Assembly: GCF_963921235.1 (NCBI RefSeq)
Contig: NC_086107.1
Location: 96,350,001-96,414,000, forward strand
Source of the DNA: Mobula hypostoma
Lineage: Eukaryota
Direction of reading: 5' to 3'
DNA: 64,000 nucleotides
Of this stretch, positions 1-64,000 are shown piece by piece. The translations under genes and the position numbers were made by a program. The notes beneath the pieces are model-generated. The model did not search any database. It was not told the origin of the DNA and saw only the letters and a list, made by a program, of their open reading frames with translations. How positions within the stretch are numbered: the first letter of the stretch is position 1; the number at the start of each line of letters is the position of its first letter.

Positions 1-1128
1 GTGGAGCTGAGAAACAGGAAAGGTATGGCCACATTAGTTGTATTATAGACCACCCAATAGTCAGCGAGAATTGGAGGAGCAAATCTGTAGAGAGATAGCG
101 GGCAACTGCAGAAAACATAAAGTTGTGGTGGTAGGGGATTTTAATTTTCCACATATTGATTGAGACTCCCGTACTGTAAGGAGTCTAGATGGGTTAGAGT
201 TTGTAAAATGTGTTCAGGAAAGTTTTCTAAATCAATATATAGAGGTACCAACTAGAGAGGATGCAATATTAGATCTCCTATTAGGGAACGAGTTAGGACA
301 AGTGACGGAAGTGTGTGTAGGGGAACACTTTGGTTCCGGTGATCATAATGCCATTCGTTTCAACTTGAACATGGATAAAGATAGATCTAGTCCTAGGGTT
401 GAGGTTCTAAACTGGAAGAAGGCCAAATTTGAAGAAATGAGAAAGGATCTAAAAAGCGTAGATTGGGACAGGTTGTTCTCTGGCAAAGATGTGATCGGTA
501 AGTGGGAAGCCTTCAAAGGCGAAATTTTGAGAGTGCAGAGCTTGTATGTTCTTGTCAGGATTAAAGGCAAAGTGAATAGGAATAAGGAACCTTGGTTCTC
601 AAGGGATATTGCAACTCTGATAAAGAAGAAGAGAGAGTTGTATGACATGTATAGGAAACAGGGAGTAAATAAGGTGCTTGAGGAGTATAAAAAGTGCAAG
701 AAAATACTTAAGAAGGAAATCAGGAGGGCTAAAAGAAGACATGAGGTTGCCTTGGCAGTCGAAGTGAAGGATAATCCAAAGAGCTTTTACAGGTAAATTT
801 TGAGTAAAAGGATTGTAAGGGATAAAATTGGTCCTCTTGAAGATCAGAGTAGTCGGCTATGTGCGGAACCAAAAGAAATGGGGGAGATCTTAAATTTTTT
901 TTTTTTGCGTCTGTATTTACTCAGGAAACTGGCATGAAGTCTATGGAATTAAGGGAAACAAGTAGTGAGATCATGGAAACTGTACAGATTGAAAAGGAGG
1001 AGGTGCTTGCTATCTTTAGGCAAATTAAAGTGGATAAATCCCCAGGACCCGACAGGGTATTCCCTTGGACCTTGAAGGAGACTAGTGTTGAAATTGCAGG
1101 GGCCCTGGCAGATATATTTAAAATGTCA
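1..1128 (+). mobile_element. CR1-type LINE ORF2 fragment (endonuclease C-terminus to pre-RT region), decayed
   Basis: Motifs YYRPPNS, VVVGDFNFP, SGDHNAIRF and KSPGPD (ORFs 302..796, 859..1128) with stops and frameshifts; ends abruptly against hAT sequence. Confidence 0.9.
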
Positions 1129-2791
1129 GTCCGGAAAAGGGCAGGTGCTGTTGCGAAACTCAGAGAGAAAGTTCAGACAGAGAATCCGGAGCAGGAATTC
1201 TGGAATTTTCATTGTATTATACAGCAAGAGGCGTTATGTAGCAGGAGCCTGAAAATGGACAATGTCATGCATGTAGTGATCAAAACGGTTAATTTTATTA
1301 GAGCCAAAGGACTCAACCATCGGTAATTTGACACTCTTTTGTCCGAAAGTAATACTGGACACGGCCTACCCTACCACACTGAAGTCCACTGGTTGAGCAG
1401 AGGGGTTGTGCTCAAACGTTTTTTTCAATTACGTGCGGAAATTGGACTATTCATGAATGAGAAAGGGAAGCCAGTGGCAGAATTGGATGACCCAGACTGG
1501 CTTCATGATCTTGCATTTTTGGTGGCTATAACAGAGCACTTAAATGTGCTTAATGATAACGTGCAAGGCCGCAACAAACTTGTTACAGAATACTATGACA
1601 GCATTCGTGCCTTTCAAGTTAAATTAGGCCTGTGGGAGATGCAACTATCCCGGAGCAACCCAACTGATTTCCCCTCTTTGCAGTCTGTGCGTGTCGCTCA
1701 TGGGAATAATGACAACATGGACAGGTACAAGGACAAAATATCACAGCTGAAAAGTGAGTTTCAGAATAGTTTCCAAGTCTTCACTCAGCTCGAGAAGGAA
1801 TTCTCACTACTTTATTCGCCGTTTGCCGTCATCGCAGCATCAGATGTGCCAGAGGAACTCCAAATGGAACTATTTGAAAATCAGTATAACTTGGCTTTGA
1901 AATATAAATTTGAGACTGTGGGTCTGGACTCATTCTATCAATACCTGGGACCGACGTACCCCAAGATGACAGACTTTGCCTCAAAGATCCTTTGCATGTT
2001 CGTGATAACATATCTCTGTGAGCAGGCGTTCTCCATAATGAACATTAACAAATCCAAACTGTGCTCGCAGCTGACACACAGACATCTAAATGACATTATG
2101 AAAATCACAACTGCCCAGAAACTGGTCCCTGACGTTGACAGGCTGGTTAAAGCCAAGAGTTGTCAGGTGTCTGGAAGCAGCAAGTGAAAAATGAGTGACA
2201 CTGTTTGAAGCGCTGCGACATGTAAGCAAAATGCATTATGAAATATTGAGTGTCATAATATTGTGATTCATTCATTCTGACTTCTATTATTGTATATGTG
2301 ATCACTTCAATAAAAATTAGAGGCGAACTGTGTTCATTGTCTGAGTTTGATTGCTGGAAGCAGGCTAATAAAAATTAGGTGCAGTTGTGTAGCCTACATT
2401 TACAATTTGTTTCGTTAGGTCTACATTTGTGTCTGCTAATGTTCGATTTCAAATGGTTTATTAATGGAAAGGGTGTGGCTCCCAAAACAATCTTAGCCAA
2501 AATAGCATCGTTTTTTTTCTCTCTCTCATCACAACTTTCTTGTAGCCTCCAACTGTAAGTTAATACTAATCATAAAAATAATGCTTGCTAAGCAATCTTC
2601 TTCATAAGAAATGAAATTTGTAAAGTGAAACACTTTGTAGTTACAGCAGAGACTGAGACACATGGGAGCAGGTTGAAAAAACGAAGGCAACGAAAGCTGT
2701 GGGAACACGGGCGTGCACAACTGATCCAGCCCGCATGAAGTCACATTTTGCCCGATCCGGCCCATGACCTAAAATGAGTTTGACACCCCTG
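1129..2791 (+). mobile_element. hAT DNA transposon, 3' part (Charlie/SPIN-type, GTF2IRD2-like transposase)
   Basis: HCIIQQEALC, HTEVHWLSRG and TYLCEQAFS motifs in ORFs 859..1326 and 1339..2187, one internal stop at 1324; right TIR TGAGTTTGACACCCCTG at 2775..2791 (reverse complement CAGGGGTGTCAAACTCA). Confidence 0.88.
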
Positions 2792-2799: not shown

Positions 2800-4070
2800 C
2801 AGTTAAAAACCTACATTGACCAAAGTGTTGTACAGATCAAAGCAGATAGCTAAAATCACAAATACAAGAAACACAGACATAACCAACAAGGCAAACAGCT
2901 TATAGGCATGAAAGAAACAACACAAGGGCCTAGGCACAAGCCAAAAATTATCCATATCAGGAGGATTCAAAGTCTAGTGAATAAAAGTAAGTTTTCAGCC
3001 TGAATTTAAAAGTCAGTGGAGGTGATAAAAGTCTTAAGGGGATTCTCAGATTGCTGTAAATAACGGTTAAGGTTGAGTCTGTGTATTCTGGTTTGAGAAT
3101 GGCTGCAGTGTGTTTCAGCAGCTGCTCTTTGGAGTGAGATAAGGTTAAAAAGCTCACAAAACCCACAAAAGTATGTCTCCTGACTTTTCACACCTTTTGG
3201 TTTCGACAAAAGGCGGTTGCTGATGGAGATTAGACAGGACGTTCCTTTCTTAATTAAAGCATAAAAGTTTGTGGATGTTCTTATCTTTGTAATTAAGTTT
3301 TGGCTCTAATAAACCAGGTAGGGCATTCCTTTCTTAATTAAAGTGGCTAGAGTGTCTATTAAACTGGTTGTTCTTTTGGATCAATAATCCACTTACTTGA
3401 CTGGAATATCTATTTTGTTTGAGGTGATTAAGTGGTCTTTTTCTCCGACTATCACTGTTGCTGAACATGTGTCTGTGGGGATTAGCTAGAAATTGTTTTC
3501 TGCATACGTGATAAAGATGGTATAAAAACTCTGTATCTCTGTGCTTCGACAGAGAGAACTCCATGACTGACTCTGTGAGAGTGCAGAAGGAGGGTTCTCC
3601 CTCGTAGCTTGCGACTAATAAAGATGGAAAAGAATCAACTGGGGTACTTGTTTCATTACATCGGGTTGATCACCATTGACAGAGGGGGCAGATTTGATAG
3701 GGAGGGGAATGCTGTTTCACAGTCTAGGGGCTACAATAGCAAAGCTGCGGTCACCCCTGAGCTTAAGTTTAGATCGTGGGACAGCCAGGAGCCCAAGTCA
3801 GCCGACCTGAGGGACCTGGAAGAAGAATAAGGGGTTAGAAGGTCTGTGATATAAGGGGGGCAGCCCATTTAGGGCTTTATAAACAAACAGGAGAATTTTT
3901 AAATCAATTCTGAACTGTACTGGCAGCCAGTGGAAGGAGGCCAGGATAGGAGTAATATGGTCCCTCTTCCAGGCACCTGTCAGGAGCTGGCTGCGACAAT
4001 CTGGACCAGTTGCAGACAGGACAGGGACCACTGACTAATCCCAGTATAGAGCGAGTTGGAGTAGTCCAAG
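2800..4070 (-). mobile_element. L2-type LINE 3' fragment, split by an LTR-like insert
   Basis: Minus-strand RDHITPILASFHWLPVQFRIDLKILL (3798..4031), then GDRSFAIVAPRL and TFKFRLKTYFYS, the typical L2 ORF2 C-terminus. Confidence 0.8.
3036..3660 (+). mobile_element. LTR-like fragment (3' part)
   Basis: Non-coding; AATAAA near 3617; ends in TTCATTACA; clearly similar to 5410..5780. Confidence 0.6.
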
Positions 4071-5318
4071 TACAGTGGACATGATCTTCTCACTGCTTCA
4101 GCTGCAGGAGAGATGTCGCAAGCTGCAGAAGCCACTGTACACAGCCTTTAGTGATCTGACAAAGGCGCTCGACCTAGTCGGCAGAACTGGGTTCTTCAAA
4201 CTCCTGCTAAAGACTGGCTGCCCCTGAAGACTGAGCAGCATTATTCCATCCTTCCACAAGGACATGCACAGCACTGTCTGCTTCAATGGAGCAACTTCTG
4301 ATGCCTTTCCAGTGAGCAGCAGAGTGAAACAAGGTTATATCCTGACACCGAACCTCTTCGGCATCTTCTTCTCCGTGCTTCTTCACTATGCTCTCGCAGA
4401 CTGCACTGAAGGCACCTACCTTCGCAGCACAAGAGATGATGACAAGCTCTTCAACATCGCTCGCTTGTGCTCCAAGACCAAAGTTAGGACAGCCCTCATC
4501 CACCAGATGCAGTTTGCAGGTGATGCAGCATTGATGTCACACACTAAAGGTGGACTCCAACAACTGATTAACCGCTTCGCTCACGCTGCAATGAGTTTGG
4601 GTATTAACCATCAGACTGAAGATAACCAATGTCGTGGCCTAGGGTGCACAATCTCCAAACGTCACCATTGATGGTTGTTCTCTTGTAATTGATTTCTTCA
4701 CTCATCTTAGGTCGACCATCACCAGCTCCGTCCCTCAAAGCAGAGGTGAACAGCAGGATTGATTGCCAAAGCTTCAGCTGTCTGGCCAGGCTGAACAAGA
4801 GAGTGTGGAACAACAGACAGCTGACCAAGAACACCAAGCTGCGTGTGTACCACAGATGCCTCAGATGGCTGTCCATGTCAAATGGATGGACCAGGGATGC
4901 ATTCCCAAGGACATATTGCATGGCCAGCTGAGTGAAGGTTACCGCCAACAAGGAAGACCATGTCTCCACTACAGGGACGTCTGCAATTGTGACATGAAGC
5001 TGGCAGGCATTGACCTCAAACACATGGGAGGAAGCAGTTGAAGACCAGCCAGCATGGATGGCCACAGTCAAAAGCGTGTGCAACGTGCTGAGACAGCATG
5101 GACCTAAGATGCTCATCGACAAGACAGCCAGAAGAAAACCCAGAGCACCTTCCTCCTTCACCTGCAGCCACTATGAAAGAGACTGTCACTCTAGAGCGGG
5201 GCTGTACAGCAACTCAAGAAAGTGCAAATAGCCCCAAGTCTATAACCCCAAGAACCATCGGAAAAAACGTCACACCTTCGTCTCAGCCAGACGTACGCAT
5301 GCCGCCGCTGCTGACGGT
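4071..5318 (+). mobile_element. RTE-clade LINE, RT to 3' end, internally deleted (copy 1)
   Basis: DMIFSLLQLQE..KPLYTAF.DLTKA, SRVKQG.IL.PNLF and QGRPCLHYRDVC motifs, C-terminal Cys/His motif; many frameshifts. Confidence 0.85.
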
Positions 5319-5320
5319 GT

Positions 5321-6290
5321 TGTCACGAAATGATAAAGGAGGGAATGTGGAAATATCTGTAACCCTGAAGTCTTAATGAATTTGTAATTTTGATAAAGTT
5401 TAAGGGAATGGGGGATTCTCAAGATTCCTGTAAACAATAGATTCAGTACTGACTATGCCTGTGACTGCAGTCTGTTTGAATAATGTCTCACAGCTGCTTT
5501 CTTTGGAGAAGATAAGGGTTAAAGTTCGCCCAGATCTACATATATGTCTCTGGGCTTGTCACACCTTTTGATTTTGACAAAAAGCAATACCTGATGGAAA
5601 TTAGACAGAACATTCCTTTCTTAATTAAAGCATAAATTTGACGGATGTTCTTATCTTTGTAATTAAGTTGTGGCTCCAGCAAACCAGGTAGGACATTCTT
5701 TTCTTTAATTAAGATGGCTGGAGTGTCTAACAAATTGACTGTACTTTTGTATCAATACTCCATTGACTTGACTGGAATAGTTATCAAACTGATTGTTCTC
5801 TGTATCAATAGTCCAGTAACTTGATCAGAATGGTTATCAAACTGATTGTTCTTTTGTATCGGTGGCCTTATAACTTCTGACAATTCTGACATCAGGCAGT
5901 GAACTTATAGAACCGCCGGGGAGATGAGAAATGTTCTTTCCCTGATGTCGGGTCCAAGTTCACTTGCCGGCTCAGCTCGAAGAAATAAACGGGTGGAAAG
6001 ATAAGAAACTATCTTTTTGTGCTGTCATTATTTGATATAGCAAAATTATGTTTACAACTTCTGTAAAATGTAATGAAAATGGGTCTATGAAATTCAAATG
6101 ATCTTTGCTGGTTTGGGTTAGCTAACTTTGTGTTATTTGGGAACAAACTTGATGACAGGCAATGGTTTTATGGCTAGAGGGGGTGTTTGATAACAGGGGA
6201 AACAAGATGGATCTTCTAAAGATCAAATGTGTGAATGACATAAGAATGAAGATAACAAATAGGAATGTAATGTTATGGAATGGAGCAATC
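5321..6290 (+). mobile_element. LTR-like sequence following the RTE
   Basis: Starts TGTCACG; short internal tandem repeats (TATCAAACTGATTGTTCT) at about 5780-5860; parts match 3036..3420 and 57781..58080. Confidence 0.55.
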
Positions 6291-7690: not shown

Positions 7691-10642
7691 TAGCCCAAGC
7701 GGAGCAGCCAGTGGAAAGCGGCCAGTGAGTGAGTGGGCCAGTGAAGGAGTGGAGCTTAGAGGCTTTGACTCGAGAGGCTTCGACAAGGAGGGGCGGAGGA
7801 CGAGCTTGCTCCCAGTTAGGCTTTAGAATGCCTCCTGAGATGGTGATGTGCTTCTCATCACCATCTCAGATGTGAGATGTGGCAGTCTTGGGGGAATTCC
7901 CCACTCCTGCAGAGTCACATCTGCCAGAAGTGCATGCCGCTGGGCGATATGGAAGACCGTATACAGAATCTAGAGCAGCAGCTGCATGACTTTCGACTAA
8001 TAAGGGAGAATGAGACAGTCATAGATGAGAGCTACAGGGAGGAAGTCACACCTAGGCTTTCGGAAGCAGGTCGTTGGGTGACAGTTAGAGGGGGGAAAGC
8101 GAAGGTGAGTAGACAGGTAGTGCAGAGCACCCCTGTAGCCATTCCCCTGAATAATAAGTATACCGTCCTGGAGACTGTTGGTGGGGACGACCAACCAGGG
8201 GTAATCCACGATGGCAGGGCCTCCAGCACTGAGTCTGACCCTGTGGTGCAGAAGGGTGCAACGGAGAAGAGGACAGCTGTCATCATTGGGGACTCTATAG
8301 TCAGGAGAGCAGACAGGAGATTTTGTGGACGTGAGAAGGACACCCGCATGGTTTGTTGCCTCCCACATGCCAGGGTCCGGGATCTCTCTGACCGGGTGCG
8401 CAACATCCTGGTACGAAAGGGAAAGCAACCAGAAATTGTGATACATGTTGGTACCAACGACAAAGGCAGGAAGAGGGATGAGGTCCTGAAGTGTGAGTTT
8501 TGGGAACTAGGCAGAAGGCTGAAGAACAGGAATTCAAGGGTGGCGATCTCAGGATTGCTGCCAGTGCTACATGATAGAGCTGGTAAGAATTGGAGGAGAT
8601 GGCAGTTGAATGTGTGGCTGAGGAGTTGGTGCAGGGGGCAGGGTTTTAGATTTTTGGATCATTTGGATCTCTACTGGGAAAGGTGAGACCTGTACAGATT
8701 GGATGGGTTGCACCTGAACTGGAGGAGGAGCAACATCCTTGCAGGTAGGTTTGCTAGCATGGTTCAGAAGGGTTTAAACTAATTTGCAAGGGGGATGGGA
8801 CCCAGAGAGATAGAACAGTGGAAGAAGTGCATGGAGTAAAGCCATATCTAACATATAAACAGGATTTGAGAAAAGAGAAGCAGAATAAAGGATGTTAAGG
8901 TAGAAGGGCTAAATTGCATGTACTTCAACGCAAGAAGCATCAGGAACAAAGTTGATGAAATGAGAGCTTGGATACATACATGGAATCATGATTTAGTGGC
9001 CATTACAGAGACTTGACTTGCACTAGGGCAGGAATGGATTAGAGATAAAGGTGGGAAGATGTGCCTGGAGGCTGTGGAAGTGAGCGAGGTCCTCAATGAA
9101 TACTTCTCTTCGGTATTCACCAATGAGAGGGAACTTGATGACGGTGAGGACAATATGAGTGAGGTTGATGTTCTGGAGCATGTTGATATTAAGGGAGAGA
9201 AGGTGTTGGGAGTTGTTAACATACATTAGGACGGGTAAGTCCCCCGGGCCTGATGGAATATTCCCCAGGCTGCTCCATGAGGTGAGGAAAGAGATTGCTG
9301 AGCCTCTGGCTAGGATCTTTATCTTTATCTATATTCCTGTCATCCACGGGAATGGTACCAGAGGATTGGAGGGAGGCAACTGTTGTCCCCTTGTTCAAAA
9401 AAGGTAGTAGGGATAGTACAGGTAATCATGTTTGCTGTTGTGTGCTGGGGCAGCAGGCTGAGGGTAGCAGACACCAACAGAATCAACAAACTCATTCGTA
9501 AGGCCAGTGATGTTGTGGGGATGGAACTGGACTCTCTGACGGTGGTGTCTGAAAAGAGGATGCTGTCCAAGTTGCATGCCATCTTGGACAATGTCTCCCA
9601 TCCACTACATAATGTACTGGTTGGGCACAGGAGTACATTCAGCCAGAGACTCATTCCACCGAGATGCAACACTGAGCGTCACAGGAAGTCATTCCTGCCT
9701 GTGGCTATCAAACTTTATAACTCCTCCCTTGGAGGGTCAGACACCCTGAGCCAATAGGCTGGTCCTGTACTTATTTCCTTCTGGCATAATTTACATATTA
9801 TTAATTATTTATGGTTTGTATTGCTATATTATACTCTATTCTTGGTTGATGCAACTATAACGAAACCCAATTTCCTTCGGGATCAATAAAGTATGTCTGT
9901 CTATCTATCTATAGACCAGTGAGCCTTACGTCTGTGGTGGGAAAGCTGTTGGAAAAGATCCTTAGAGATAGGATCTATGGGCATTTAGAGAATCATGGTC
10001 TGATCAGGGACAGTCAGCATGGCTTTGTGAAGGGCAGATCATGTCTAACAAGTCTGATAGAGTTCTTTGAGGAGGTGACCAGGCATTTAGATGAGGGTAG
10101 TGCAGTGGATGTGATCTACATGTATTTTAGTAAGGCATTTGACAAGGTTTCATACGGTAGGCTTATTCAGTAAATCAGAAGGCATGGGATCCAGGGAAGT
10201 TTGGCCAGGTGGATTCAGAATTGGCTTGCCTGCAGAACTGCAGAGGGTCGTGGTGGAGGGAGTACATTCGGATTGGAGGGTTGTGACTAGTGATGTCCCA
10301 CAAGGATCAGTTCTGGGACCTCTACTTTTCTTGATTTTTATTAACGACCTGGATGTGGGGGTAGAAGGGTGGGTTGGTAAGTCTGCAGACAACACAAAGG
10401 TTGGTGGTGTTGTGGATAGTGTAGAGGATTGTTGAAGATTGCAGAGAGACAATGATAGGATGCAGAAGTGGGCTGAGAATTGGCAGATGGAGTTCAACAT
10501 GGAGAAGTGTGAGGCGGTACACTTGGAAGGACAAACTCCAAGGCAGAGTACAAAGTAAATGACAGGATACTTGGCAATGTGGAGGAGCAGAGGGATCTGG
10601 GGGTACAGGTCCACAGATCCCTGAAAATTGCCTCACAGGTAG
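7690..10642 (+). mobile_element. CR1 LINE: 5'UTR, ORF1 (Zn finger + SGNH esterase), EN start fused to RT; interrupted by Rex and Gypsy insertions
   Basis: ORF 7877..8686 GDSIVR..HVGTND (SGNH); YFNARSI EN start at about 8920; KSPGPDGI, QHGFVKGRSCLT and [11 protein letters not shown] motifs; resumes at 17136. Confidence 0.9.
9427..9909 (+). mobile_element. Rex1/Babar-like LINE 3' end inserted in the CR1 RT
   Basis: FAVVCWG..RINKLIRKAS..SHPLH..RCNTERHRKSFLPVAIKLYN; tail GATCAATAAAGTATGTCTGTCTATCTAT; the CR1 motif GN|YRPVSLTS is split exactly here. Confidence 0.85.
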
Positions 10643-10752
10643 TGTCACGCAGGTGAGAAACTGCTAGAAAATTCAGGAGTCTAATGAACAAGGAGGCAAT
10701 TAAAAGAGAGATAGGACTCAGACTTTGTTTTGATAACACTTTTAATTGTGAC

Positions 10753-10787
<35 letters not shown>

Positions 10788-11308
10788 GGCGCCAGCTGAG
10801 ACACCAGCTGGGAAGTCGCTATGGTAACAGCTCAGAGAGGATGAGCTAACCGACAGCTGGAATTTCGGATGGATTATAAAAGGTGATCCTTTTGTCTGAT
10901 AACGAGGAGGGGTAACGACACGGGAGAACTGCGGAAGCTATCCGAGAAACCACTGGTGGAGTTTAAGACCACCAAGAGGGTGGAGGCCACGGACCAATTA
11001 ATTTCCACCCGTGATTACCAATGCGGGTAAGAGCTTGCCTGTGGGGGTCTGCTGGTGGTGAACCCGTGCCGTGGGTTAGTAGACCGTTCTCTAGAAGGGG
11101 CTCTGTCTATCTGTGTCTGTGTGGGGGTCACACCAAGTGACTCTGAAGACTTCGGAAGCAAGAACAACTAAAGCTGCCAACTTGAACATCAACTCAATTA
11201 ACCCTCTCTTTCTCCATCAATTCAACTCGACGCAACACAAACTGAACTAAACTCCATGTGTGTTTCATTTCTGCTGGTCCTTTTCAACCCGTCACGGGGT
11301 TCGTGACA
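10643..11308 (+). repeat. 5' LTR, family A
   Basis: TGTCACGC..CGTGACA termini; (GA)n tract; TATAAAA; matches 16445 and 29715 copies. Confidence 0.92.
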
Positions 11309-11312
11309 AAAT

Positions 11313-11331
11313 TGGGGGCTGCGTCTGGGAT
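11313..11331 (+). promoter_or_regulatory. Primer-binding site, tRNA-Pro-like
   Basis: TGGGGGCTGCGTCTGGGAT, 4 nt after the LTR, compared with canonical tRNA-Pro PBS TGGGGGCTCGTCCGGGAT. Confidence 0.75.
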
Positions 11332-12909
11332 CAGAACAAATTTGGTTGAAGCCAATTTTCGAAATTGTGTGGGGGCTTGTCCTCATTGGGGAAATCCCTT
11401 GTAATTAATCTTTGTGTGGAAAAACAGCAGAAATGGATGTTGCGAAATTTCTGGCAAAGCCAAACCCTGTGGTTTTGCAGAGAGCTAAAAAGGATGATGT
11501 GCGGGACATTGCTAAAGAATTGAGAATTGAGATAAAGAATTGTATGACTAAGATAGAAATTCAAAGAGAAATAGTTGAATATTATGTTTCGGCGAAACAA
11601 TTTACTGAGGATGTGTTGAAAATGTTCGCTGGAGGTACACTTACTGAGACTGAGATTCAGCTTCAGGTGGAGCAATGCAGGCTGGAGGCTGTGGATAGGA
11701 AAAGACAGCATAAGTTGCAACTGAAACATCTCGAGGCGGAAGAGGCAGAAAAACAGAGAAGCAGAAAGACAGAGGGAGTTTGAGAGGGAGATGCGGCGTC
11801 AAAAGGGTCAAGTGTCAAGCCGTGGTAGCGAGAGGGGTGTATCAATTAATGTCAATCAGGAAATTAAGTTGGTACCTCCGTTTGCTGAAGGAGACATTGA
11901 TAGGTACTTCCACATTTTGAGGAAGTGGCTCAGAACAGGAAGTGGCCGAGGGAGGACTGGGCAGTATTGCTGCAAACTGTGTTAAAAGGGAAAGCACAAC
12001 AAGCATATTCTGCCTTGTCTGTGACTGAGTCGACTAATTATAATGCTGTGAAGGAGGCTGTGCTTAAGGTCTATGAAATGGTGCCAGAAGCGTACCGACA
12101 GAAGTTTCGGAGTTTGAGGAAGTCTTGGAACCATTCATATATAGAGTTTACCTGTGAAAAGGAGAGGTACTTTGATTGGTTGTGTGACTCAAAAGAGGCA
12201 GACGAGGACTACCACAAAGTGAGACAGCTGATGCTGATCGAGGAATTTAAAGAGTGTGTCCCTAGTGACATACGGACATACTTAGAAGAGAAAGCGGTTG
12301 ATACTCTTTCCGCGGCTGCTAGGTTAGCGGATGAGTTTGCCCTGACTCACAAGATTAAGTTTTTCCTGAGCAAGGATTATCAGAAGAGTTACCGGGATAA
12401 TCCGCCGAGTAAAACAGAAAACAAGGCAGGAGTAGTGACAGAGGTAAAGAGGAGAGGAAACCAACCAAAGATAAGTTTTCCAGTTTTACCTGTTACTACT
12501 GCAGGAAGCCTGGCCATATGGTGTCTAACTGTCTACTTCGGAAGAAAGAAATGGGAAAGGAGAAGGGGAAAACCCCCGACATGTGTGCCATGGCGGCTGA
12601 GACCACACGAAGGAAGGTGGGGTCTGGCCGAGTTCAGGAAGGGATTGAGTGGTTTATTTTCAAGGGTGTTGTGTCTGTGAAGGAGGGGTCACCCCTAGTT
12701 CCAGTGAGAATCTGGCGTGATACTGGAGCCTTTCAGTCACCAATATTAAGTGATATCTTAGAATTTGGTGACGAGACAAAAACGGACCAAGTGAATATTC
12801 TGGAAGGTATTGGCAAGGGAACAGAGGTTGTGCCTTTGCACAAAATAATTTTGAAATGTGACTTCGTGTCTGGACCAGTTGAGATAGGGATACGACCTAA
12901 ATTACCGAT

Positions 12910-17131: not shown

Positions 17132-17135
17132 AAAT

Positions 17136-36220: not shown

Positions 36221-36221
36221 T

Positions 36222-47462: not shown

Positions 47463-47477
47463 AATAAATTTTTATTG

Positions 47478-52001: not shown

Positions 52002-53065
52002 GATGGCACCCAGTGAAGTCGCAAGTTTTTATGCTTAAGATAATTTGTTGATTTTCATCTCAAATGTTTAATAATATGTCACAATCCCGGTCCGGCGTCG
52101 TCCAACACTTGATCGTTTACCAGTTTTTGAAGTTTTCTTTGGCTTTGGAAGACATATTTTGTGTTTTTTATTGTTGCATGGTGGATGATACCACATGTTC
52201 CTAGAAGTTTTAATGCCTTCAAGAAGGTGCAGTCCTCCCCTGAAAATATGGAGTTTGGAGTGCCTTTGGAAAAGTCTCGTGCTGCTGCTTCGGAACAGGA
52301 GCAGTTATTCCCAGCTTCAAAACCCAGAGGACGACCCCAGCCTGGAGCCTTTACTTGAGTCAGACCTAGACACTCCGGTGAAGATTACTGTTAAAAAGAA
52401 GAAAGGTCACTTTACAAACTATACTGCAGTTTGTAAAGTTAATTAAGCGCAGTTAGTTAACGATAGATCCGATGATCTGGCACTGAGAATTGGCAACAAT
52501 AGAAGTAGCATCAAATCCCTCGACTTTATTTTTGAAGAGGTGATCACCCCGAAGTCTGATGGTGTGCAGATCAAAGGGACTTGCACGGACCACGGGAAGA
52601 GAATTGAGACTTTGAAGCTGAGGCTGAATGAGGCCGAGTGTTATCAGAGAAGGTGGAATCTGAGAACCCACGGCATTCCAGAGCAAACGGATGAAGATAT
52701 TGAAACTAAAGTAAATCAAATATGCCAAGCAGTAGCTCCGGAGGCCAAGGAGGAGATTCTACTATATGTGGATGTTGTATATCCGCTCGGTTGGATAAGA
52801 GGATAAGAAACTTCAGGTGACCATTATTCGATTTTCAAACAAAACTACGAGGTATCTGGTATGGAAACAAGCCAGATAACATTTATACCTGCTCTCACAG
52901 AGCCTGAAGATCGCCGTGGATCTGACTGTAGCTGATAAGTTGGCCCCACAGAAGCTGTCGCCGAAGGTGGAGGCTGCTAGAAAAGATGGGAAGCGTGCTT
53001 TCTTTGCTGGGACCTGAGCTTTCATTGATGGAAAAGAGATACAAGCAGAACGGTAACATGCTGGT
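52002..53065 (+). mobile_element. LINE 5' part with L1-type ORF1 remnant
   Basis: LNEAECYQRRWNLRTHGIPE..EDIETKV ORF1-like motif (52540..52806). Confidence 0.6.
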
Positions 53066-53067
53066 GT

Positions 53068-53365
53068 TGATTGCAGAGAGACATTGATAGGATGGAGAAG
53101 TGGGCTGAGAAATGGCAGATGGAGTTCAACCCAGAGAAGTGTGAGGTGGTACACTTTGGAAGGACAAACTCCAAGGCAGAGTACAAAGTAAATGGCACGA
53201 TACTTGGTAGTGTGGAGGAGCAGAGGGATCTGGGGGTACATGTCCACAGATCCCTGAAAGTTGCCTCACAGGTAGATAGGGTAGTTAAGAAAGCTTATGG
53301 GGTGTTAGCTTTCTTAAGTCGAGGGATAGAGTTTAAGAGTCCCGAGGTAATGATGCAGCTCTATA
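53068..53365 (+). mobile_element. CR1 RT fragment, same subfamily as 20140-20435
   Basis: QRDIDRMEKWAEKWQMEFNPEKCEVVHFG; nucleotide sequence nearly identical to the 20140-20435 region. Confidence 0.88.
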
Positions 53366-53629
53366 TTAGAAAATTATTTCTTTCAACAAACGAACGAAAA
53401 GAAACTGCACATCCACAAAAACCACAACCATAGCAAAATCAAATTAAATATTGAGCAGCAAGAGAGAGAAAAATATAAAGGCATAAGTAAACATATACAG
53501 CAGATCTGCACCGCACCAAAAAACCTCAGTCCTCACCCCATAAGAAAGCAAATACAAGGCCCCATATCCTTTCAAAAATATGCCCTATGTCCTCATTACA
53601 TAGTCTAGTCTCTCCAAATGTAAATGTAA

Positions 53630-54410
53630 TTCTCCAAAGGACTACAATACCCTTCAACAAGACATTAACTCGCTGTATAAGTGGAAGACTCCTCCTGGCA
53701 GATGAAATTTAACATCTCAAAAGTGCTACATTATGAGAATGACCCACAAGAAAAATTTTCACCACCATCAGTACTTCATGGAAAACGTTGCACTCCAGGA
53801 TGTAAAACATCACCCCTACTTGGGCAGTGAACTGTCAGATAACCTTAACTGGGTAAAACACATCAACCAAACCATTTCAAGTTCCAATAAAATCCTTAGC
53901 CTTCTGCGGCGTAGCTTCTGGAATTGCTCAAAAACCACAAAAGAAATTGTTTATAAAACTCTCGTCCATCCAAGACTTGAATACAGTCGTGCCATTTGGG
54001 ATCCCTACCAAACCATTCACATCAATAACCTTAGGAAAGTCCAGAGAAGAGCTGCCAGGTTTATAACCAGTGATTGCAGAAAGACCAGTAGTGTTACAGA
54101 TAGGCTCCTTGACCTCAAATGGGATACCCTCCAAAGAGGCCGCACAATAGCCAGGCTTACTACAGTTTACAAGGAAACTCATTCATTAACTCCATCCAAC
54201 ATTAGTCACCTTTTGTGCACCTGGAATAACAGACCAGTAACCCAACAAAACCAATCCCTGAAGTACAAGACCATTCAGACCAACAAGGACTGCTACTGCT
54301 ACTCACTCTACCCTAGGACCATTCCAGTTTGGAACTCCCTGCCACCACACATTAAATCTGCCGCTGACAGTAAAACTTTCAAGTCGCTGCTCTTAAACAG
54401 TGCAATTTAA
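53630..54410 (+). mobile_element. CR1/Crack/L2-superfamily LINE, RT C-terminal part
   Basis: ORF 53733..54410 YLGSELSDNLNW, YKTLVHPRLEY, VQRRAARF and SLYPRTIPVWNSLP. Confidence 0.75.
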
Positions 54411-54988: not shown

Positions 54989-54989
54989 T

Positions 54990-55712: not shown

Positions 55713-56370
55713 ATATGGTTAATAATAACATTTCATCTCGGAGACAAACTGTTGCTCTGTTAAATTAGTGAGTTGGAATGTTAAATCTCCTAATCACCCT
55801 GTAAAATGAAAAAAGGTATTTACTCATTTGAAATGCCTTAAAACTAATATAGCATCCCTACAGGAGACCCACTTGCGTATCTCTGATCATTGTTGACTAA
55901 GAGGGGGATGGGTTGGTCAAATATTTCACTCTAATTTTAATTCAAAGGCCAGAGGAGCAGCTATAACAACTAGTAAAAATACACAGTTCGTGGCAACGAG
56001 TGTTGAACCTGATCCAGCAGGACGGTTTTTAATTGTAACTGGGCGGCTATATGGGCTGCCCGTTATTCTTGCCAATGTTTATGCACCGAACTGGGATGAC
56101 CATATGTTCTTTTAGTGATTTCTTCACCAAGTGGCCAAACATGGTCACACATAAGCTCATCCTCGGAGGCAATTTTAATTGCCCTCTCTTCAATTTTGGA
56201 CTGAAGTGCTGCAAGGATTGTCCCTATCTCTAGGTCAGCACAGTTTATCAGACATTTTCTTAAAACGTATGGAGTGGCTGATGTAAGGCGGTTTCATAAC
56301 CCTACATCTCGGAGTTACTCTTTTTTTTCTCCTCAGTACACGGTTCCTATTCACGTATAGATTTTTTTTT
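55713..56370 (+). mobile_element. L1 ORF2 endonuclease fragment
   Basis: SWNV, LQETHL, SKARG, DPAGRF, NVYAPN, GGNFN and SRID motifs, frameshifted. Confidence 0.8.
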
Positions 56371-56384
56371 TATGCACACATCCC

Positions 56385-57780
56385 CCAAGATATATGAGCC
56401 AACATTGTCACACTGTACAAAAACAAGGGCAACTGTAGTGATTGTAACAACTACTGTGGCATCTCTCTCCTTGGTATTGCAGGGCAAGTGTTCGCCCATG
56501 TCGTCTTGGCACGACTTCAGAACCTTGCATCCAGAGTCTACCCAGAGTCCCAGTGCGGCTTCAGAGGTGGCTGGTCTACAGTGGACATGATCTTCTCACT
56601 GCTCCAGCTGCAGAAGTGTCGCGAGCTGCAGAAGCCGCTGTACACAGCCTTCTTTGATCTGACAAAAGCACTTGACCTTGTCAGAAGTGGACTCCTGAAA
56701 CTCCTGCTAAAGACTGGCTGCCCCTGAAGACGGAGCAGCATTATATTATTCTACAAGGACACGCACAGCACTGTCTGCTTCAATGGAGAAGTTTCTGATG
56801 CCTTTCCAGTGAGCAGCAGGGTGAAACAAGGTTGTGTCCTGGCACCAAACCTCTCCAGAATCTTCTTCTGCATGCTCTCGCAGACTGCACTGAAGGCACC
56901 TACCTTCGCAGCACAAGAGATGATGACAAGCTCTTCAACATCGCTCACTTGTGCTCCAAATCCAAAGTTAGGACAGCCCTCATCCACCAGATGCGGTTTG
57001 TAAATGCTGCAGCATTGATGTCACACACTAAAGGTGGACTCCAACTGATTAACCGCTTCGCCACGCCTGCAAGGAGTTTGGGTGGTAACCATCAGACTCA
57101 AGATGACAAATGTCATGGCCCAGGGCGCAGAATCTCCTCCAAACATCACCATTGATGGTTGTTCTCTTGTAGTTGATTTCTTCACCCATCTTAGGTCGAC
57201 CATCACCAGCTCCCTGTCCCTCAAAGCAGAGCTGAACAGCGGGATTGATTGCCAAAGCTTCAGCTGTCTGGCCAGGCTGAACAAGAGAGTGTGGAACAGA
57301 CAGCTGACCAAGAACACCAAGCTGCGTGTGTACCACAGATGCCTCAGATGGCTGTCCATGTCAAATGGATGGACCAGGGATGCATTCCCAAGGACGTGTT
57401 GCATGGCCAGCTGAGTGAAGGTTACCGCCAACAAGGAAGACCATGTCTCCGCTACAGGGACGTCTGCAATTGTGACATGAAGCTGGCAGGCATCGACCTC
57501 AAACACATGGGAGGAAGCAGCTGAAGACCAGCCAGCATGGCTGGCCACAGTCAAAAGCCGTGTACAACGAGCTGAAATAGCATGGACCAAGACGTTCATC
57601 AAAGAGCCAGAAGAAAAGCCAGAGCTTCATCACCCAGAGCACCTTCCTCCTCCACCTGCAGCCACTATGAAAGAGACCGTCACTTTAGAGTGGGGCTGTA
57701 CAGCAACTCAAGAAAGTGCAAGCAACCATCAGAAAAAGTGCCACACCATCGTCTCTCGGATGCCGCCGCTGCTGACAGTG
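56385..57780 (+). mobile_element. RTE LINE RT to 3' end (copy 2)
   Basis: YPESQCGFRGGWSTVDMIFSLLQLQ; shares deletions and lesions with 4071..5318. Confidence 0.88.
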
Positions 57781-58080
57781 TTCTCATGAAATGATAAAGG
57801 CGGGAATGTGGAAATATCTGTAACCCTTAAGTCTTTATTAATTTGTAACTTTTGTAAAATGTAATGAAAATGGGTCTATGAAATTCAAATGATCTTTGCT
57901 GGTTTGGGTTAGCTAACTTGCAACTGTTTGTGTTATTTGGGAACAAACTTGATGACAGGCAATTGTTTTATGACTAGAGAGGATGTTTGATAACAATGGA
58001 AATAAGATGAATCTTCTAAAGATCAAATGTGTGAACGAGGTAAGGATGAAGATAACGAAAGGAATGTAATGTTATGGAAT
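57781..58080 (+). repeat. LTR-like segment duplicated from 5321-5390 plus 6055-6282
   Basis: Direct sequence match, e.g. GTAAAATGTAATGAAAATGGGTCTATGAAATTCAAATGATC. Confidence 0.8.
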
Positions 58081-58535
58081 GAGGCAACACCTCACATACC
58101 GCAACACACATAAAAGTTGCTGGTGAACGCAGCAGGCCAGGCAGCATCTCTAGGAAGAGGTACAGTCGACGCTTTGGGCCGAGACCCTTTGCCGGGACGA
58201 AGCGTCGACTGTACCTCTTCCTCGAGATGCTGCCTGGCCTGCTGCGTTCACCAGTAACTTTTCTGTGTGTTGCTTGAAATTCCAGCATCTGCAGATTTCC
58301 TCGTATTTGCAACCTCATATACCGTCTGGGATGTCTCCAGACCCTTGGTATGAACACTGAATTCTCCAACTTCCAGTAATTCCCTCCCCCTCTCTTCTCC
58401 CATCCCAGTTTCACTCTTCCCCCTCCTCTAGCTGCCTATCACCTCCCTCATGGTTCTGCCTCCTTCCATTACCCATTGTGCTTTCCTCTATTCCTTCTTC
58501 ACCTTTCCTGCCTATCAGCTCCCTGCATCCCCACT
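58081..58535 (+). mobile_element. Penelope-like 3' fragment containing a second, inverted-head Penelope pLTR insertion (58101..58311)
   Basis: QHLIYRLG..GMNTEFSNF matches the GIY-YIG C-terminus at about 44540; insert flanked by ACCTCACATACC/ACCTCATATACC; arms 58101..58174 and 58200..58273. Confidence 0.8.
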
Positions 58536-58550
58536 GTGGTAAACCATGTA

Positions 58551-60055
58551 CAGGTGTCCCCCGCTTTTCGAACGTTCGCTTTACGAAACCTCATTGTTAC
58601 GAAAGACCTACATTAGTACCGTTTTCACTGTTACGAAAAAAATTCAGCGCGCGATAAAAAGCAGCGCGAGCCCCGAGCAGCCACTCTCCCCGGATTCGGA
58701 ACGGTATTCTCGCCGGCATTGCTTTAACATGAGCCTGTGAGCAGTCGTTTGCAAGATGAGTTCTATGATGTTGGAAAAGCCTGAAAGAGCTTGTAAGGGT
58801 GTTACACTTAGTGTAAAACTAGACATAATTGTTTCGATCATGGTGAATGAAGTCAGGACAGAGTGAGTTTGGCTTGTGGAAGCTGACGAAGATGATGTTG
58901 AAGAGGTTTTGCATCCCATGACCAAGAACTGATAGATGAAGAGCTGATGCAATTAGAAGAGGAAAGGATAACAATCGAAATCGAATAAGTAATGATAAAG
59001 TACGACTTTAATTTTAAAAGGGTATGTAGGTTTAGGGGATATTTGCAAGATTCTTTGAGTCCTTACAAAGAACTGTATCACAGAAAAATGCACGAGGCTC
59101 AGCAGCCAAGCAAGCCTTCCACATCAGCCACAGCAGACGACGAACCTCGACCTTCAACATCGAGGCGGGCAGTCATAGGAGAAGATGAGCTGCCTGCTCT
59201 AATGGAAACAGACCACGAGATGACACCCCAGTGTCCCACCACCCCAACACCCAGGCCACGGACAGATACTGTACCGATTCGCGGAGAATGCAGCGATAGC
59301 CGGGAGGCACACAGCACATCTTTAAGAAAAAAGCCAAAATAAACATGCTAATTAGGTGCCGACCCACACGTAACTGTCGGCCCAGATCAGAGGCGATGCA
59401 ATCGGCAATGGGCACTGATCTGGGCCAACAATTACGTGTCAGGTAGCACGTAATTAACTAGCATGTTTATTTCGGCTTTTTTCTTAAAGATGTGCTGTGT
59501 GCCTCCCGGCTACCACTGGACCCCTGCATGCTTCGCGGCAATGTATCGGTTGGTGGCCCGGAGGGTGGGGGCCACTGCACCACCCAACCTGAGACGACTC
59601 AGTCTAACACAGCATCATCAGTGTGCTCTGCGCTGTCCTGATTCCGCTAAGTGATACTACACTGTACATATATTATTTCTACTTTATATCGGCTGTGTAT
59701 TTTTACGTGTTTTTGGTATGATTTGGCAGCTTCATAATTTAAAGGTTACCGTACAGCATGTTCTCGCCAACAACGCTTGCGTGAGATTTTCTGCCGACGG
59801 TGCTTGCGTGAGATTTTTGCGACGGAGAGCAGTGCAGTAATGATTGTGGAAAAGTATCTCTACTTTATATAGCCTGTGTATTTATCATATCATTCCTGCT
59901 TTTATTATATGTTACTGTTATTTTAGATTTTGTGTGTTATTTGGCATGATTTGGTAGGTTATTTTTGGGTCTGCGAACGCTCACAAAGTTTTCCCATATA
60001 AATAAATGGTAATTGCTTCTTTGCTTTACGACATTTCGGCTTACGAACCGTTTCA
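58551..60055 (+). mobile_element. Internally deleted Tigger of the same family as 22747..25476
   Basis: TA followed by identical left end CAGGTGTCCCCCGCTTTTCGAACGTTCGC; DDE domain deleted; matching C-terminus and 3'UTR; right TIR lost. Confidence 0.9.
59245..59577. mobile_element. Palindromic hAT-type MITE inside the Tigger derivative
   Basis: 8-bp TSD CACCACCC; right end GGGGGCCACTG; long inverted repeat spanning 59297..59512. Confidence 0.7.
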
Positions 60056-63000
60056 AGACCTAAAGTCCGAGACACTAAACTTGCAAAAGATAATGATGGC
60101 GACGGAAAAAAGAAACCCAATCCTAAACAACCTGAGTTAACTTATGACTTGATGTTGAATTTGCTTTGTGAACAAGCTGATGAAATACATCGAGGCTTTA
60201 AAGATGAAATTAAGGCAATTACGGATTCTTTTTATGTGCTCGACCATCATGTTCAACAGCAACAAAACAAAATCACTGAATTGAAGAAGGATGCACGAAA
60301 GAAGATGAAAAAAATTGAGAGTTTGGAACTAGAAGTTTCTTTGACAGATAAACAGCTGGAGAGTCTTAAGATCTAAGATTACTGATCTGGAAAACCCATC
60401 CAGAAGAAAGACATTTAATTGGTCTCCCCCGAGGGAGTTGAGACAGGAGACCCTTCAGTAATCTTTTCTGAACTTTTAAAGACTGCATTTAGCTCTGAAT
60501 TCCTGGATGATCCTCCATTACTCGATCACGTGCATCGTATTTTTCGGCATAAATCAGATTCCCAATCTAAACCGAGACTAGTAATTATCTGATTTCATTA
60601 TGTTTATGTCAAAGAGCAACTCATACAAGTAGCCCAAAAGCAGGGAATGATTAAATTTCAAGACCATCAGTTCCGCTTGTAGAGCGCGCGATTGGCTTTC
60701 AAACCTCTGATGATGGTATGTTACCAAAAAAATCTCGAACCAGCGTTACTGTATCCTGCTCGTTTAAGAATTTCTCCTCCAAACAGCCAGCGACGTTTCT
60801 TCAACTCTACAAGTGCAGCTCAATGCTTTCTGGAAGAACTTGAATCAGCTGCCACAGTCCAATTAATATACGAATCTTGTGATATTGGCTTTGACTTTTT
60901 CTTTTTTCTCAAATTCTATTAATCATACGATTTATTTTTGAAGATTGACTTTTATAAGTTTAAGATTTCTAGTTTTGATCGGTAGCGCTGGTATTCTTTA
61001 TACTTTATGTTGTTATTGGTTAGTTTTTATTTTTTTTATTGTATGTGGGGGAATATCATTTTTTTTCTCCCTGGGGTATAACTATGATGGCGTTTTATCT
61101 TCTTCTTCCCATAATACTTTTCTTTCTGGATGTGCCTTTTTTTTTCATTCAATTGTTCTCCCTTACAAATATTTAATATTGAATAATATGTATTGGTATC
61201 TCTTTTCTCTTTTTATTTTATTATAATCAGTAATTATAATACTAAGGTATTTTATTTTACTGTATCTGTTAAGTTTATTGTCTTTTTCACTGTTATAGTG
61301 TAGTCTTTTTTAGGTGGTCTTTTTACCAACATATATGTAGGAGCCGCCTTCTGAAGAAATGGGGGTAGATTTAGTCTTAGCTAGCTTTCTGGCCTTTTCT
61401 TGGCTTAGTTTTAGGGTTTCTTGGGTGGTGGGTGGGGGGGGCATATACTTTTTTTTTCAAATGGGCTGAATTTGAACTACAATGTCTGCAATGTCGCAAC
61501 TTCTGTCTCCTTTCCTAATGCTGGTTCCTCTTCTGGTTACGAGTTTATACTCTGGTTAACTCTTAAAATTAATTTTGTTTCTTGGAATACAAATGGTTAA
61601 GTCATCCAATTAAAAGGAAAAAGATTTTTAAAATATTCCACAGAATGAATGCCCATATTATTTTTGCCCAAGAAACTCATGAAGAAAGAGGATAATCAGC
61701 GGTTTCTTTAAGTTTTGGAAGGCCTAAGAGTATCACTCAAACTCCAAAGCTAAAGTGAAAGGAGTTTCAATTTTTATAGATTCTTCAATTGCATTTGTAC
61801 ATCAGAATACCTTCTCTGACCCGAATGGTAGATTCTTGTTAATTACCGGTCTACTTTTTAATAAGAAAGTTGTTATGGTTAATGTTTATGCCCCAAATAT
61901 GGACTACCCTTAATTTTTTAAACAATTATTTACCTCCTTTCCTGATTTAAGTGATTACATGTTGATAATGGGGGGGGGGTGACTTTAATTGCTGCTTAAA
62001 TCCTTCGATGGATAAATCTGTACCTACTCGGGCATTACCGAATAAGTCGGCTACTCTTATCAATTAGTTTTTGATTGATTCTGTAATCTCCGAAATCTGG
62101 AGATCCCAAGGATAAAGAATTATCTTTCTTTTCAAATGTACATCACACTTATTCTAGGATTGACTATTTTTTATAGACTCTTGTTTAATCCCATCTGTAA
62201 TTGAGTGTAACTATGATATCATTGCCATATCTCATCATGCACCATTGAATCTCAATCAAGCTATGGGATATACCTTTTAATACTAGACAATGGCGTTTTA
62301 AATCCAACTTACTTCAAGATTCAGATCTCATCAAATTTATTAAGGATCAGATTGACCTTTTTTTTAAACTAATACTATGGATGAAATTCCCAGTGGGGTT
62401 ATATGGGACACTTTTAAAGCTTATATCCGTGGTCAGATCATTGCCTACTTGGCTGGATTGAAAAAACGCACTAAGAATGAAATACTTGTGTTGACTGATA
62501 AGATTAAAGACAGTGATAAACAATATGCCACTGCTCCTAATGAGGAGCTTTACAAACAGAGAGTTGAACTTCAAATGGAGCATAGTTTACTCTTAACATA
62601 GTCAATAGAAAATTAACTAATGAAAACAAGTGAGTTTTATATACAGTGATAAATCTGGTAAATTATCAGCCAAACAATTAAAAACAGCTTCGGTTAAACT
62701 TCAAATTACTAAGATTCCTAAACCTAATGATACTTTAACAGTTGATCATGATGAGATTAATAAATCTTTCCAAGAATTTTATACATCTTTATATCAGTCA
62801 GAATTTCCTCATGATCCTAGGGGGATGCATGACTTTTTAAGGAAATTGAACTTCCCGAAATTAACGCCCGAAGAACGTTTAAAGTTAGAAACACCTATTA
62901 CAGATGAAGAAATAGTGGGTGCTATTTCTTCAATGAATTCTGGCAAATCACCCGACCCAGATGGCTATACAGCAGAATTTTTGAAGTTTTTTTCTTCTGT

Positions 63001-64000
63001 TCTTTCTCCCCAGTTGTGCAGCTTTTAGAGATGCAATTATTATAGGTAAACTACCACAATCATTTTATGCAGCCTCTATTTCCTTAATTAAAAAAAAATA
63101 AGGATCCTACTGAATGTGCATCATATAGACTGATACCCTTATTGAATGTTGATTCAATATTTTTTCCTAAAATATTAGCATCTAGGTTAGAAAATGTATT
63201 ACCTCAAACTATTTCTGCGGATCAAACTGGATTTATTAAAAATCATTATTCATCTTTTAATATTAGAAGATTAATAAATATTATTTATACTCCTTCACCG
63301 AGAACTCCAGAATGTGTTATTTCATTAGATGCTGAGAAACTTCTGACAGAGTTGAATGGCCAAATTTATTTACTACGCTTGAGAAGTTTAACTTTAGCCT
63401 GATATTTATATCCTGGATTAAACTGATCTATCATACTCCCTTAGCTTCGGTTTTAACTAGTAATCAAAGATCTCCCTTTTTTCGATTATTTCGTGGCACT
63501 AGGCAGAGTTATCCTTTAAGTCCTTTATTATCTGATACTGCTTTAGAACCTTTAGCAATTGCTATTCGAAATTCACCAAATATTTTTGGTATTACTCATG
63601 GGAAAGAGATACATAAGTTATCATTATATGCAGATGATTTACTATTATATATTTCTGACCCAGAAAAATCCATTCCTGCAACTTTATCCTTGTTGGATAA
63701 GTTTAGTAAGTTTTCTGGTTACAAACTGAATCTTAATAAGAGTGAACTTTTTCCGTTAAATATGATGGTTCCAAACTATAAATGTTTACCATTTAGATTA
63801 GTTACTGATCACATTACTTATTTGGGAGTTAAAATTACTAAGAAGCATAAGGATTTATTAAAGGTTAATTTTTTTTAGCCTTATGTGATCAGATTAAAGG
63901 TTTGATTACAAAATGGTCACCAATGTTTTTGTCATTAATTGGTTTGATCAATGCTGTTAAGATGATTATTTCACCTAAGTTTCTATATTTATTTCAAGCA
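60056..64000 (+). mobile_element. L1 LINE (ORF1, spacer, ORF2 EN-RT), decayed, runs off the window end
   Basis: LLYPARLRI ORF1; SWNTNG, AQETH, NVYAPN, GKSPDPDG, DAEK, YADD and SGYKLN ORF2 motifs. Confidence 0.9.

Follow-up and report, generated by a model that had tools for sequence, protein, structure and literature searches.

A 64-kb stack of transposable elements in Mobula hypostoma with nearly all insertions on one strand

Composition of the window

The window analyzed here is a 64,000-base stretch of the Mobula hypostoma genome (assembly GCF_963921235.1, contig NC_086107.1, positions 96,350,001 to 96,414,000 of the forward strand), and all coordinates below are counted from its first base. 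Many unrelated families of transposable elements (TEs) are nested in it, and nearly all of the insertions read on the plus strand. The sequence has no N, its G+C content ranges from 31 to 49% per 2-kb bin, and the CpG observed/expected ratio is 0.47. We ran the 344 stop-to-stop open reading frames (ORFs) of at least 60 aa, 165 on the plus and 179 on the minus strand, against Pfam. Insertion events were defined by Pfam, tblastn, self-comparison and database relatives, and collinear pieces were joined by hand into events with approximate boundaries. TE evidence from these methods covers 61% of the bases. Since many of the evidence-free gaps separate collinear parts of a single element, the true TE share is above 61%.

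Among the 344 ORFs, none on either strand matched a host-type Pfam domain. The 108 ORFs of 40–59 aa in the unannotated gaps gave 0 Pfam matches and no sign of a host exon, which is weak evidence. Rfam and ARAGORN returned 0 matches on the window, hence no intact tRNA-type heads of short interspersed elements and no known non-coding RNAs. The GC skew on the plus strand is strongly positive (0.2–0.35 per 2-kb bin) at 8001–12000, 16001–22000, and 46001–52000. These bins coincide with CR1-rich parts, and the skew probably reflects the base composition of the CR1 sense strand. It gives rise to long spurious ORFs on the minus strand.

Nested elements of the left half

The first 30 kb contain the following plus-strand elements, among them long interspersed nuclear elements (LINEs) with endonuclease (EN) and reverse transcriptase (RT) regions, and retrotransposons bounded by long terminal repeats (LTRs).

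38..1121, plus: CR1-type LINE fragment, EN and linker (tblastn with the window's own CR1 EN ORFs; direct translated matches of 197–526 to 19394–19723 and of 1024–1119 to 9225–9320)
1327..2184, plus: C-terminal part of a hAT transposase (Dimer_Tnp_hAT, E=3.4e-4, just under the Pfam cut-off; first Atlas match, at 0.97, to hAT/FAM200-GTF2IRD2-like clusters)
4071..6288, plus: LINE RT fragment of the same family as 56329–58087, with an insert at about 5413–6055 (self-match and weak RVT_1)
7847..10641, resuming at 17136–17427, plus: CR1 no. 1, ORF1 esterase and RT (OSK/GDSL, RVT_1; collinear with CR1 no. 2 across the insertion point)
10642..17135, plus: LTR retrotransposon no. 1, nested in CR1 no. 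1 (Pfam matches to gag with a SCAN-like domain, integrase, RT, and RNase H; homology to element no. 2)
17428..20900, approximate, plus: CR1 no. 2, ORF1 esterase, EN, RT, and C-terminal region (OSK, Exo_endo_phos, RVT_1; tblastn)
20961..29578, plus: LTR retrotransposon no. 2, inserted in a CR1 tail (Integrase_H2C2, rve, RVT_1, RNase H)
22700..25440, outer boundaries approximate, plus: pogo/Tigger DNA transposon in the gag of LTR element no. 2 (DDE_1, 1.4e-29; CENP-B_N; HTH_Tnp_Tc5; Tigger1-like relatives)
29712..30683, plus: solo LTR of the element no. 1 family (90–92% direct matches to both element no. 1 LTRs; hairpin at 30235–30529)

Three insertions share the sense of their hosts: LTR element no. 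1 lies within CR1 no. 1, the CR1 tail holds LTR element no. 2, and the latter in turn holds the Tigger. A CR1 tail piece (27113–27285) lies in LTR element no. 2 in the opposite sense. The LTRs of element no. 1 (10642 to about 11312 and 16444 to about 17135) are 89% identical to each other, and so are those of element no. 2 (20961–21827 and 28740–29578), which have TG..CA ends. Element no. 2 also has a purine tract before its 3′ LTR and is flanked by GCTG repeats. In both elements the integrase lies upstream of RT-RNase H (11904–16316 and 25814–28547), which we take to be the Gmr1-like order. The SCAN-like gag domain occurs in element no. 1 only (11904–16316), and a 36/72-bp tandem repeat occupies 12926–13143 in its gag region. 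The clusters closest to a CR1 ORF1 are chordate for the most part.

The Tigger is flanked by gag pieces at 22457–22747 and 25477–25636 (tblastn), and contains an intact 623-aa transposase ORF (22942–24810). A search for its terminal inverted repeats gave no convincing pair. The best database relatives of the transposase are 73–77% identical and unnamed; the next named relatives are Trichuris suis proteins at 62–68%, and the named vertebrate relatives reach at most 47%. The likeness to T. suis could stem from horizontal transfer, or from host DNA in a parasite assembly. The LINE fragment at 4071–6288 corresponds to its second copy in two parts: 4071–5412 matches 56577–57874 directly at 86%, and 6056–6288 matches 57847–58087. 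Both copies have a weak, concordant RVT_1 match (E=0.057 and 0.044).

Elements of the right half

From 30 to 64 kb the elements are more fragmentary, and the plus strand carries the following.

30875..31691, plus: L1-type ORF1 remnant (tblastn of the ORF at 46404–46712 to 31443–31667, E=4e-5; weak coiled-coil-type Pfam matches)
33537..34551, plus: Gypsy-type protease and RT fragment (gag-asp_proteas match; RT by tblastn at 34345–34551)
34577..36218 (34577–34782 and 35917–36218), plus: CR1 3′ part, interrupted by an insert of about 1.1 kb (direct translated matches to 20486–20914 and 48571–49028)
36200..36817, plus: Tc1-type transposase fragment (DDE_3, 1.3e-13)
38314..40434, plus: L1/Tx1-like LINE with RT and zf-RVT (RVT_1, zf-RVT; homology to 62933–64000)
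41400..43664, start approximate, plus: second L1-like LINE with RT (RVT_1, 6e-17, at 42860–43342; tblastn 42760–43664)
44142..44609, plus: GIY-YIG endonuclease fragment, Penelope-type (PF01541, E=4.8e-5)
46404..46712, plus: L1 ORF1 fragment (Tnp_22_dsRBD, E=7e-4, weak)
47476..47817, plus: solo LTR fragment of the element no. 2 family (direct matches to 20960–21298 and 28740–28901)
47916..49063, plus: CR1-like LINE, RT and C-terminal region (RVT_1, 2e-16; tblastn)
49759..53430, plus: CR1 no. 3, ORF1 esterase, EN, and RT (GDSL/OSK, Exo_endo_phos, RVT_1; tblastn)
53592..54407, plus: jockey/I-like LINE, C-terminal region (41 relatives in the database, of which several have PF00078 and are named jockey-like RT; tblastn)
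56329..58087, plus: LINE RT fragment, second copy of the 4071–6288 family (self-match, tblastn, weak RVT_1)
58548..60055, plus: second Tigger copy, internally deleted (direct DNA matches to 22744–25439; transposase by tblastn at 58741–59219)
60611..60838, plus: L1 ORF1 fragment (tblastn, E=2.4e-5)
62933..64000, plus: L1/Tx1-like RT, cut by the window end (RVT_1; tblastn)

Among named relatives of the jockey/I-like region (53706–54407), the best come from echinoderms and a hemichordate (about 59–61% identity), which is high for hosts so distant. Hairpin or palindromic units resembling miniature inverted-repeat transposable elements (MITEs) are located at 30235–30529, 44894–45040, 54989–55091, 58101–58273, and 59291–59518. 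One such MITE-like family has copies at 44.9 kb and 58.1 kb and is represented in both relative orientations. The CpG-island-like windows at 58.2–59.7 kb fall in the Tigger/hairpin repeat.

Minus-strand elements

Four LINE pieces read on the minus strand.

2933..4117 (2933–3043 and 3603–4117), minus: 3′ part of an L2-type LINE, ORF2 C-terminus, interrupted by an insert of about 560 bp (relatives of the ORF at 3801–4034; tblastn)
27113..27285, minus: CR1 tail piece inside LTR element no. 2 (89% inverted match to 48894–49045; inverted translated matches)
32866..32997, minus: CR1 internal piece (inverted matches to 51572–51700 in CR1 no. 3)
35415..35540, minus: CR1 piece inside the 1.1-kb insert of the split CR1 3′ part (inverted match to 36008–36133)

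The L2 is the largest of them. Its minus-strand ORF at 3801–4034 has 24 database relatives, eight of them with PF00078, and the top named one, from Leucoraja erinacea, is 79% identical. When these relatives were searched back against the window by tblastn, they hit 3603–4228 and 2933–3043, both on the minus strand. The Pfam-based queries had missed this element, and such methods can therefore overlook remnants outside recognizable domains. A reading of the sequence alone, made before our analysis (the sequence-only reading), had named as exceptions the L2, a 156-bp CR1 tail, and a CR1 piece inside a MITE. All three are recovered here, the L2 by database relatives and tblastn at about 2933–3043 and 3603–4117, the tail by inverted self-matches at 27113–27285, and the third at 35415–35540 within the 1.1-kb insert. 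That list was incomplete in that it lacked the CR1 piece at 32866–32997. A further possible exception in that reading, 53366–53625, yielded no orientation evidence for one strand or the other by our methods. A direct repeat of about 300 bp (81%) is shared by the minus-strand L2 (3111–3408) and the plus-strand LINE of 4071–6288 (5484–5779). It is probably a short non-autonomous element, to which we assign no class.

Strand orientation

All transposon-type Pfam matches in the 344 ORFs are on the plus strand and none is on the minus strand. The matched domains include RVT_1 (more than 12 pieces), Exo_endo_phos, the OSK/GDSL esterase of CR1 ORF1 (three), rve, Integrase_H2C2, RT_RNaseH, aspartyl protease, SCAN/zf-CCHC gag, DDE_1/CENP-B_N, DDE_3, Dimer_Tnp_hAT, GIY-YIG, and the L1 ORF1 dsRBD. 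We then searched the 32 Pfam-positive plus-strand ORFs against the window by tblastn and obtained 70 non-self high-scoring segment pairs (HSPs) on the plus strand and 0 on the minus strand at E<=1e-3. A relaxed tblastn for hidden minus-strand coding remnants gave nothing on that strand below E=0.045, and 13 long minus-strand ORFs had no TE domain in Pfam at E<=10.

Both self-comparisons point the same way. Blastn of the window against itself yielded 33 direct versus 9 inverted HSPs (12,568 versus 1,355 nt), where four of the inverted ones are self-palindromes and the direct set includes the two LTR pairs, which are direct by construction. The translated comparison of 959 ORFs of at least 35 aa yielded 568 direct and 31 inverted HSPs.

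The curated set consists of 26 events on the plus strand (about 44.9 kb) and the four short LINE pieces on the minus strand (about 1.06 kb), which gives p=5.9e-5 in a two-sided binomial test against a 50:50 expectation per event, as in all binomial tests below. LINEs account for 21 of the 30 events, and 17 of them are on the plus strand (p=0.007). The LTR and DNA elements, which include three Gypsy-type internal regions and two solo LTRs, are on the plus strand in 9 of 9 cases (p=0.004). The polarity is thus independent of TE class. When six weakly supported plus-strand events are left out, 20 of 24 remain on that strand (p=0.0015). By automatic union of the evidence, 33.8 kb are oriented on the plus strand and 1.17 kb on the minus strand. 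About 98% of the oriented bases are on the plus strand. The two sets also differ in length: the minus-strand pieces are 126–626 bp long, and the plus-strand events reach 6.5 kb (Mann-Whitney p=0.007). There is no polarity switch between base 38 and base 64000, and the polar domain extends past both window ends. The sequence-only reading had proposed that nearly all TEs lie on the plus strand; Pfam, tblastn, the two self-comparisons, and the binomial test of orientation agree on this. The strand polarity is real, and far above a 50:50 expectation.

A candidate minus-strand transcription unit

We consider the window to be part of an ordinary minus-strand transcription unit, with a probability of roughly one half. 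This unit would most probably be a long intron of an ordinary host gene, or else a transcript that is non-coding or stems from untranslated read-through. RNA polymerase II would long have read the minus strand here as part of one long unit. TEs on the minus strand would carry promoters, splice sites, and terminators facing the same way as the transcript, and they would disrupt it and be lost. TEs on the plus strand, antisense to the transcript, would be tolerated and accumulate. The preference of LINEs for inserting into older LINEs in the same orientation probably adds to the polarity. Purifying selection would then have left the polarity as a passive trace, and the locus would not be a dedicated means of defence.

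Several observations fit such a unit. A LINE-specific insertion bias can explain part of the LINE polarity in a nest, and does not predict that all nine LTR and DNA elements are on the plus strand. The long plus-strand LTR elements and LINEs are the most biased, and what survives on the minus strand is short, as expected if long sense-oriented elements were purged. The lack of a polarity switch agrees with a single transcription unit that extends beyond the window. The lack of host-type domains in the 344 and 108 ORFs is consistent with an intron or non-coding DNA, without demonstrating one.

The literature describes this type of bias in several hosts. Within genes, LTR elements and LINEs, and in some species DNA elements as well, are reported to lie preferentially in antisense in human, mouse, chicken, zebrafish, and Drosophila (PMC3517506, PMC3088655, PMC2911107), and the reported bias is 2:1 for human LTR elements (PMC3517506). 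The sequence-only reading had held that an intron explains the orientation of DNA transposons less well than a piRNA cluster would. This argument is no more than partly right: DNA transposons are reported to show an intronic antisense bias in chicken and Drosophila (PMC2911107). Elasmobranch genomes grew as their introns lengthened with repeats, and these introns resemble intergenic DNA in repeat make-up, and long repeat-filled introns form a large share of these genomes (bioRxiv 10.1101/2025.06.08.657570). The window is like intronic TE bias in that several classes are co-oriented over a long exon-free stretch, with long elements most affected and the exceptions short. It is unlike it in that the bias (26/30 events; about 98% of oriented bases) is well above about 2:1, and in that any host gene is unseen.

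Some points weigh against this explanation. The bias is stronger than that reported for whole classes within genes, which is about 2:1 at most; at 2:1 per event, at least 26 of 30 events on one strand would occur with P=0.013. At 3:1 the value is 0.10, so that an intron under strong selection, with a nesting bias in addition, would still be compatible with the count. Depletion of termination signals on the transcribed strand was not found in a crude count of bare poly(A) hexamers: AATAAA occurs 70 times on the minus strand (40–63 expected) versus 52 times on the plus strand, and ATTAAA 63 versus 51 times, so that both are at or above the Markov expectation on the minus strand. The 5′ splice-site hexamer GGTGAG, counted as crudely, is mildly low on the minus strand (6 versus 9.5–11.4 expected). 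In addition, 39% of the bases carry no TE or orientation evidence by our methods, and both the minus-strand transcript and the selection acting on it are what we infer purely from the sequence.

Alternative explanations

The second explanation is a dedicated uni-strand cluster of PIWI-interacting RNAs (piRNAs), as proposed by the sequence-only reading, either resembling Drosophila flamenco (flam) or of the read-through kind found downstream of genes. We regard it as unlikely, though worth weighing, and by our estimate less likely than a long minus-strand intron or non-coding unit. The window would then be part of a uni-strand, TE-antisense piRNA precursor locus of at least 64 kb, which would correspond to flamenco in a vertebrate and keep an archive of LINEs, LTR elements, and DNA transposons alike. 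A long minus-strand precursor would start beyond the right window end and be processed in the gonads. Its products would be antisense to CR1, L1-like, Penelope, Gypsy-type, hAT, Tigger, and Tc1 elements, and antisense insertions would be kept for silencing. In function, a flamenco-like cluster is characterized by abundant 24–32-nt piRNAs that come from a single strand, are antisense to TEs, and show 1U and phasing, and by a long single-stranded precursor with a discrete Pol II promoter.

The strength of the polarity speaks for such a cluster, as it exceeds ordinary genic bias and takes in DNA transposons, one of which may be young and has an intact transposase ORF, and so does the variety of unrelated families nested at the locus. 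In Drosophila, a scan for TE-rich, strongly strand-biased windows found flam-like loci, and in the two candidate species with public small-RNA sequencing data the piRNAs came from one strand only (PMC10643416). The window resembles flamenco and flam-like loci in being TE-rich over tens of kilobases, nested, and strongly biased with no switch, much in the spirit of that sequence-only scan. In the flam-like loci described there, however, the bias is carried by env-bearing Gypsy or endogenous retroviral elements only, which are enriched relative to the genome average (PMC10643416). The window differs in its vertebrate host and in a bias that is LINE-dominated and spans LINEs, LTR elements, and DNA elements; no envelope-type Pfam match was found in the 344 ORFs. 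A known vertebrate analogue is the mammalian pre-pachytene cluster, which takes up antisense TE fragments by read-through downstream of genes (PMC11615739). Like the core clusters of mosquitoes, these clusters give rise to one-strand precursors that capture TE or virus fragments in antisense (PMC11615739; bioRxiv 10.1101/2022.08.22.504762). They are defined by small-RNA data and an upstream gene, and 64 kb with no boundary is long for such a unit.

Other points lower the probability of a piRNA cluster. In a comparison with a cichlid as the sole fish, most of its piRNA clusters were described as dual-stranded. Dedicated clusters take up a tiny share of a genome, whereas long introns take up a large one. 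Both LTR elements are old (89% LTR identity, 11% divergence), and much of the content is therefore not made up of recent invaders. A literature search for piRNA clusters of cartilaginous fishes found none, and the nearest work concerned Argonaute proteins of lungfish and coelacanth.

The third explanation, which we hold to be somewhat less probable again, is an untranscribed TE nest. The target sites preferred by LINE endonucleases would be commoner on one strand of older LINEs, a new LINE would thus tend to take on the orientation of the LINE it enters, and deletions and drift would do the rest. At least the first 30 kb do form a nest seeded by CR1 copies, and the three same-sense nestings of the left half all lie in it. 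The purine-rich plus strand, with a GC skew of up to +0.35, points to a strand-asymmetric target content, and the undepleted poly(A) hexamers on the minus strand are also in line with a nest that is not transcribed. In human intergenic DNA, nested insertions in sense outnumber those in antisense by a factor of 2.2 for both L1 and Alu within L1, and by a factor of 2.0 for ERVL within ERVL (PMC2836564). The window is like the nested clusters of Levy et al. (2010, PMC2836564) in that younger TEs sit in older ones in the same orientation, as in the three nestings above, the one antisense CR1 piece aside. It is unlike them in that the preference reported there is about 2:1, with a mechanism explained for L1 and Alu only, which leaves the nine LTR and DNA events (9/9; p=0.004) unaccounted for, beyond any LINE target preference. 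Even at 0.67–0.69 per event, at least 26 of 30 would still be improbable (0.013). A pure insertion bias also does not predict that the minus-strand pieces are selectively short.

We know of no orientation preference of LTR integrases or of Tc1, pogo, and hAT transposases. As insertion mechanics explain neither the nine co-oriented LTR and DNA elements nor the short minus-strand pieces, a minus-strand transcript is favoured, be it an intron-type unit or a piRNA precursor.

The weakest explanation, for which we see very little room, is an artefact or non-independence of the events, that is, a segmental or tandem duplication of TE blocks, an assembly artefact, or chance. Several families are indeed present more than once (three to six CR1 pieces, two related LTR elements, two Tigger copies), but chance alone has p=5.9e-5 and the sequence is free of N. 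Segmental duplication was rejected as the cause: no self-match is longer than 1,365 bp (at 86%), the copies diverge by 5–35%, and their neighbours differ, which indicates separate insertions and not a duplicated block. The probability left over after these four explanations goes to something we have not considered.

Implications

The window is a new instance of an already known type of pattern. If it lies in an intron, it would be a strong illustration of selection orienting TEs in the giant introns of elasmobranchs, and nothing new in kind. With an intron-type unit and with a piRNA precursor alike, the polarity predicts a minus-strand transcript, with or without piRNAs. If the less likely piRNA precursor locus proved true, it would be a rare vertebrate case of a class-independent, one-strand TE archive, in a lineage whose piRNA loci are apparently undescribed. 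It would place the architecture of a one-strand transposon trap at the base of the jawed vertebrates, and would mean that strand-bias scans of sequence can find such loci beyond insects.

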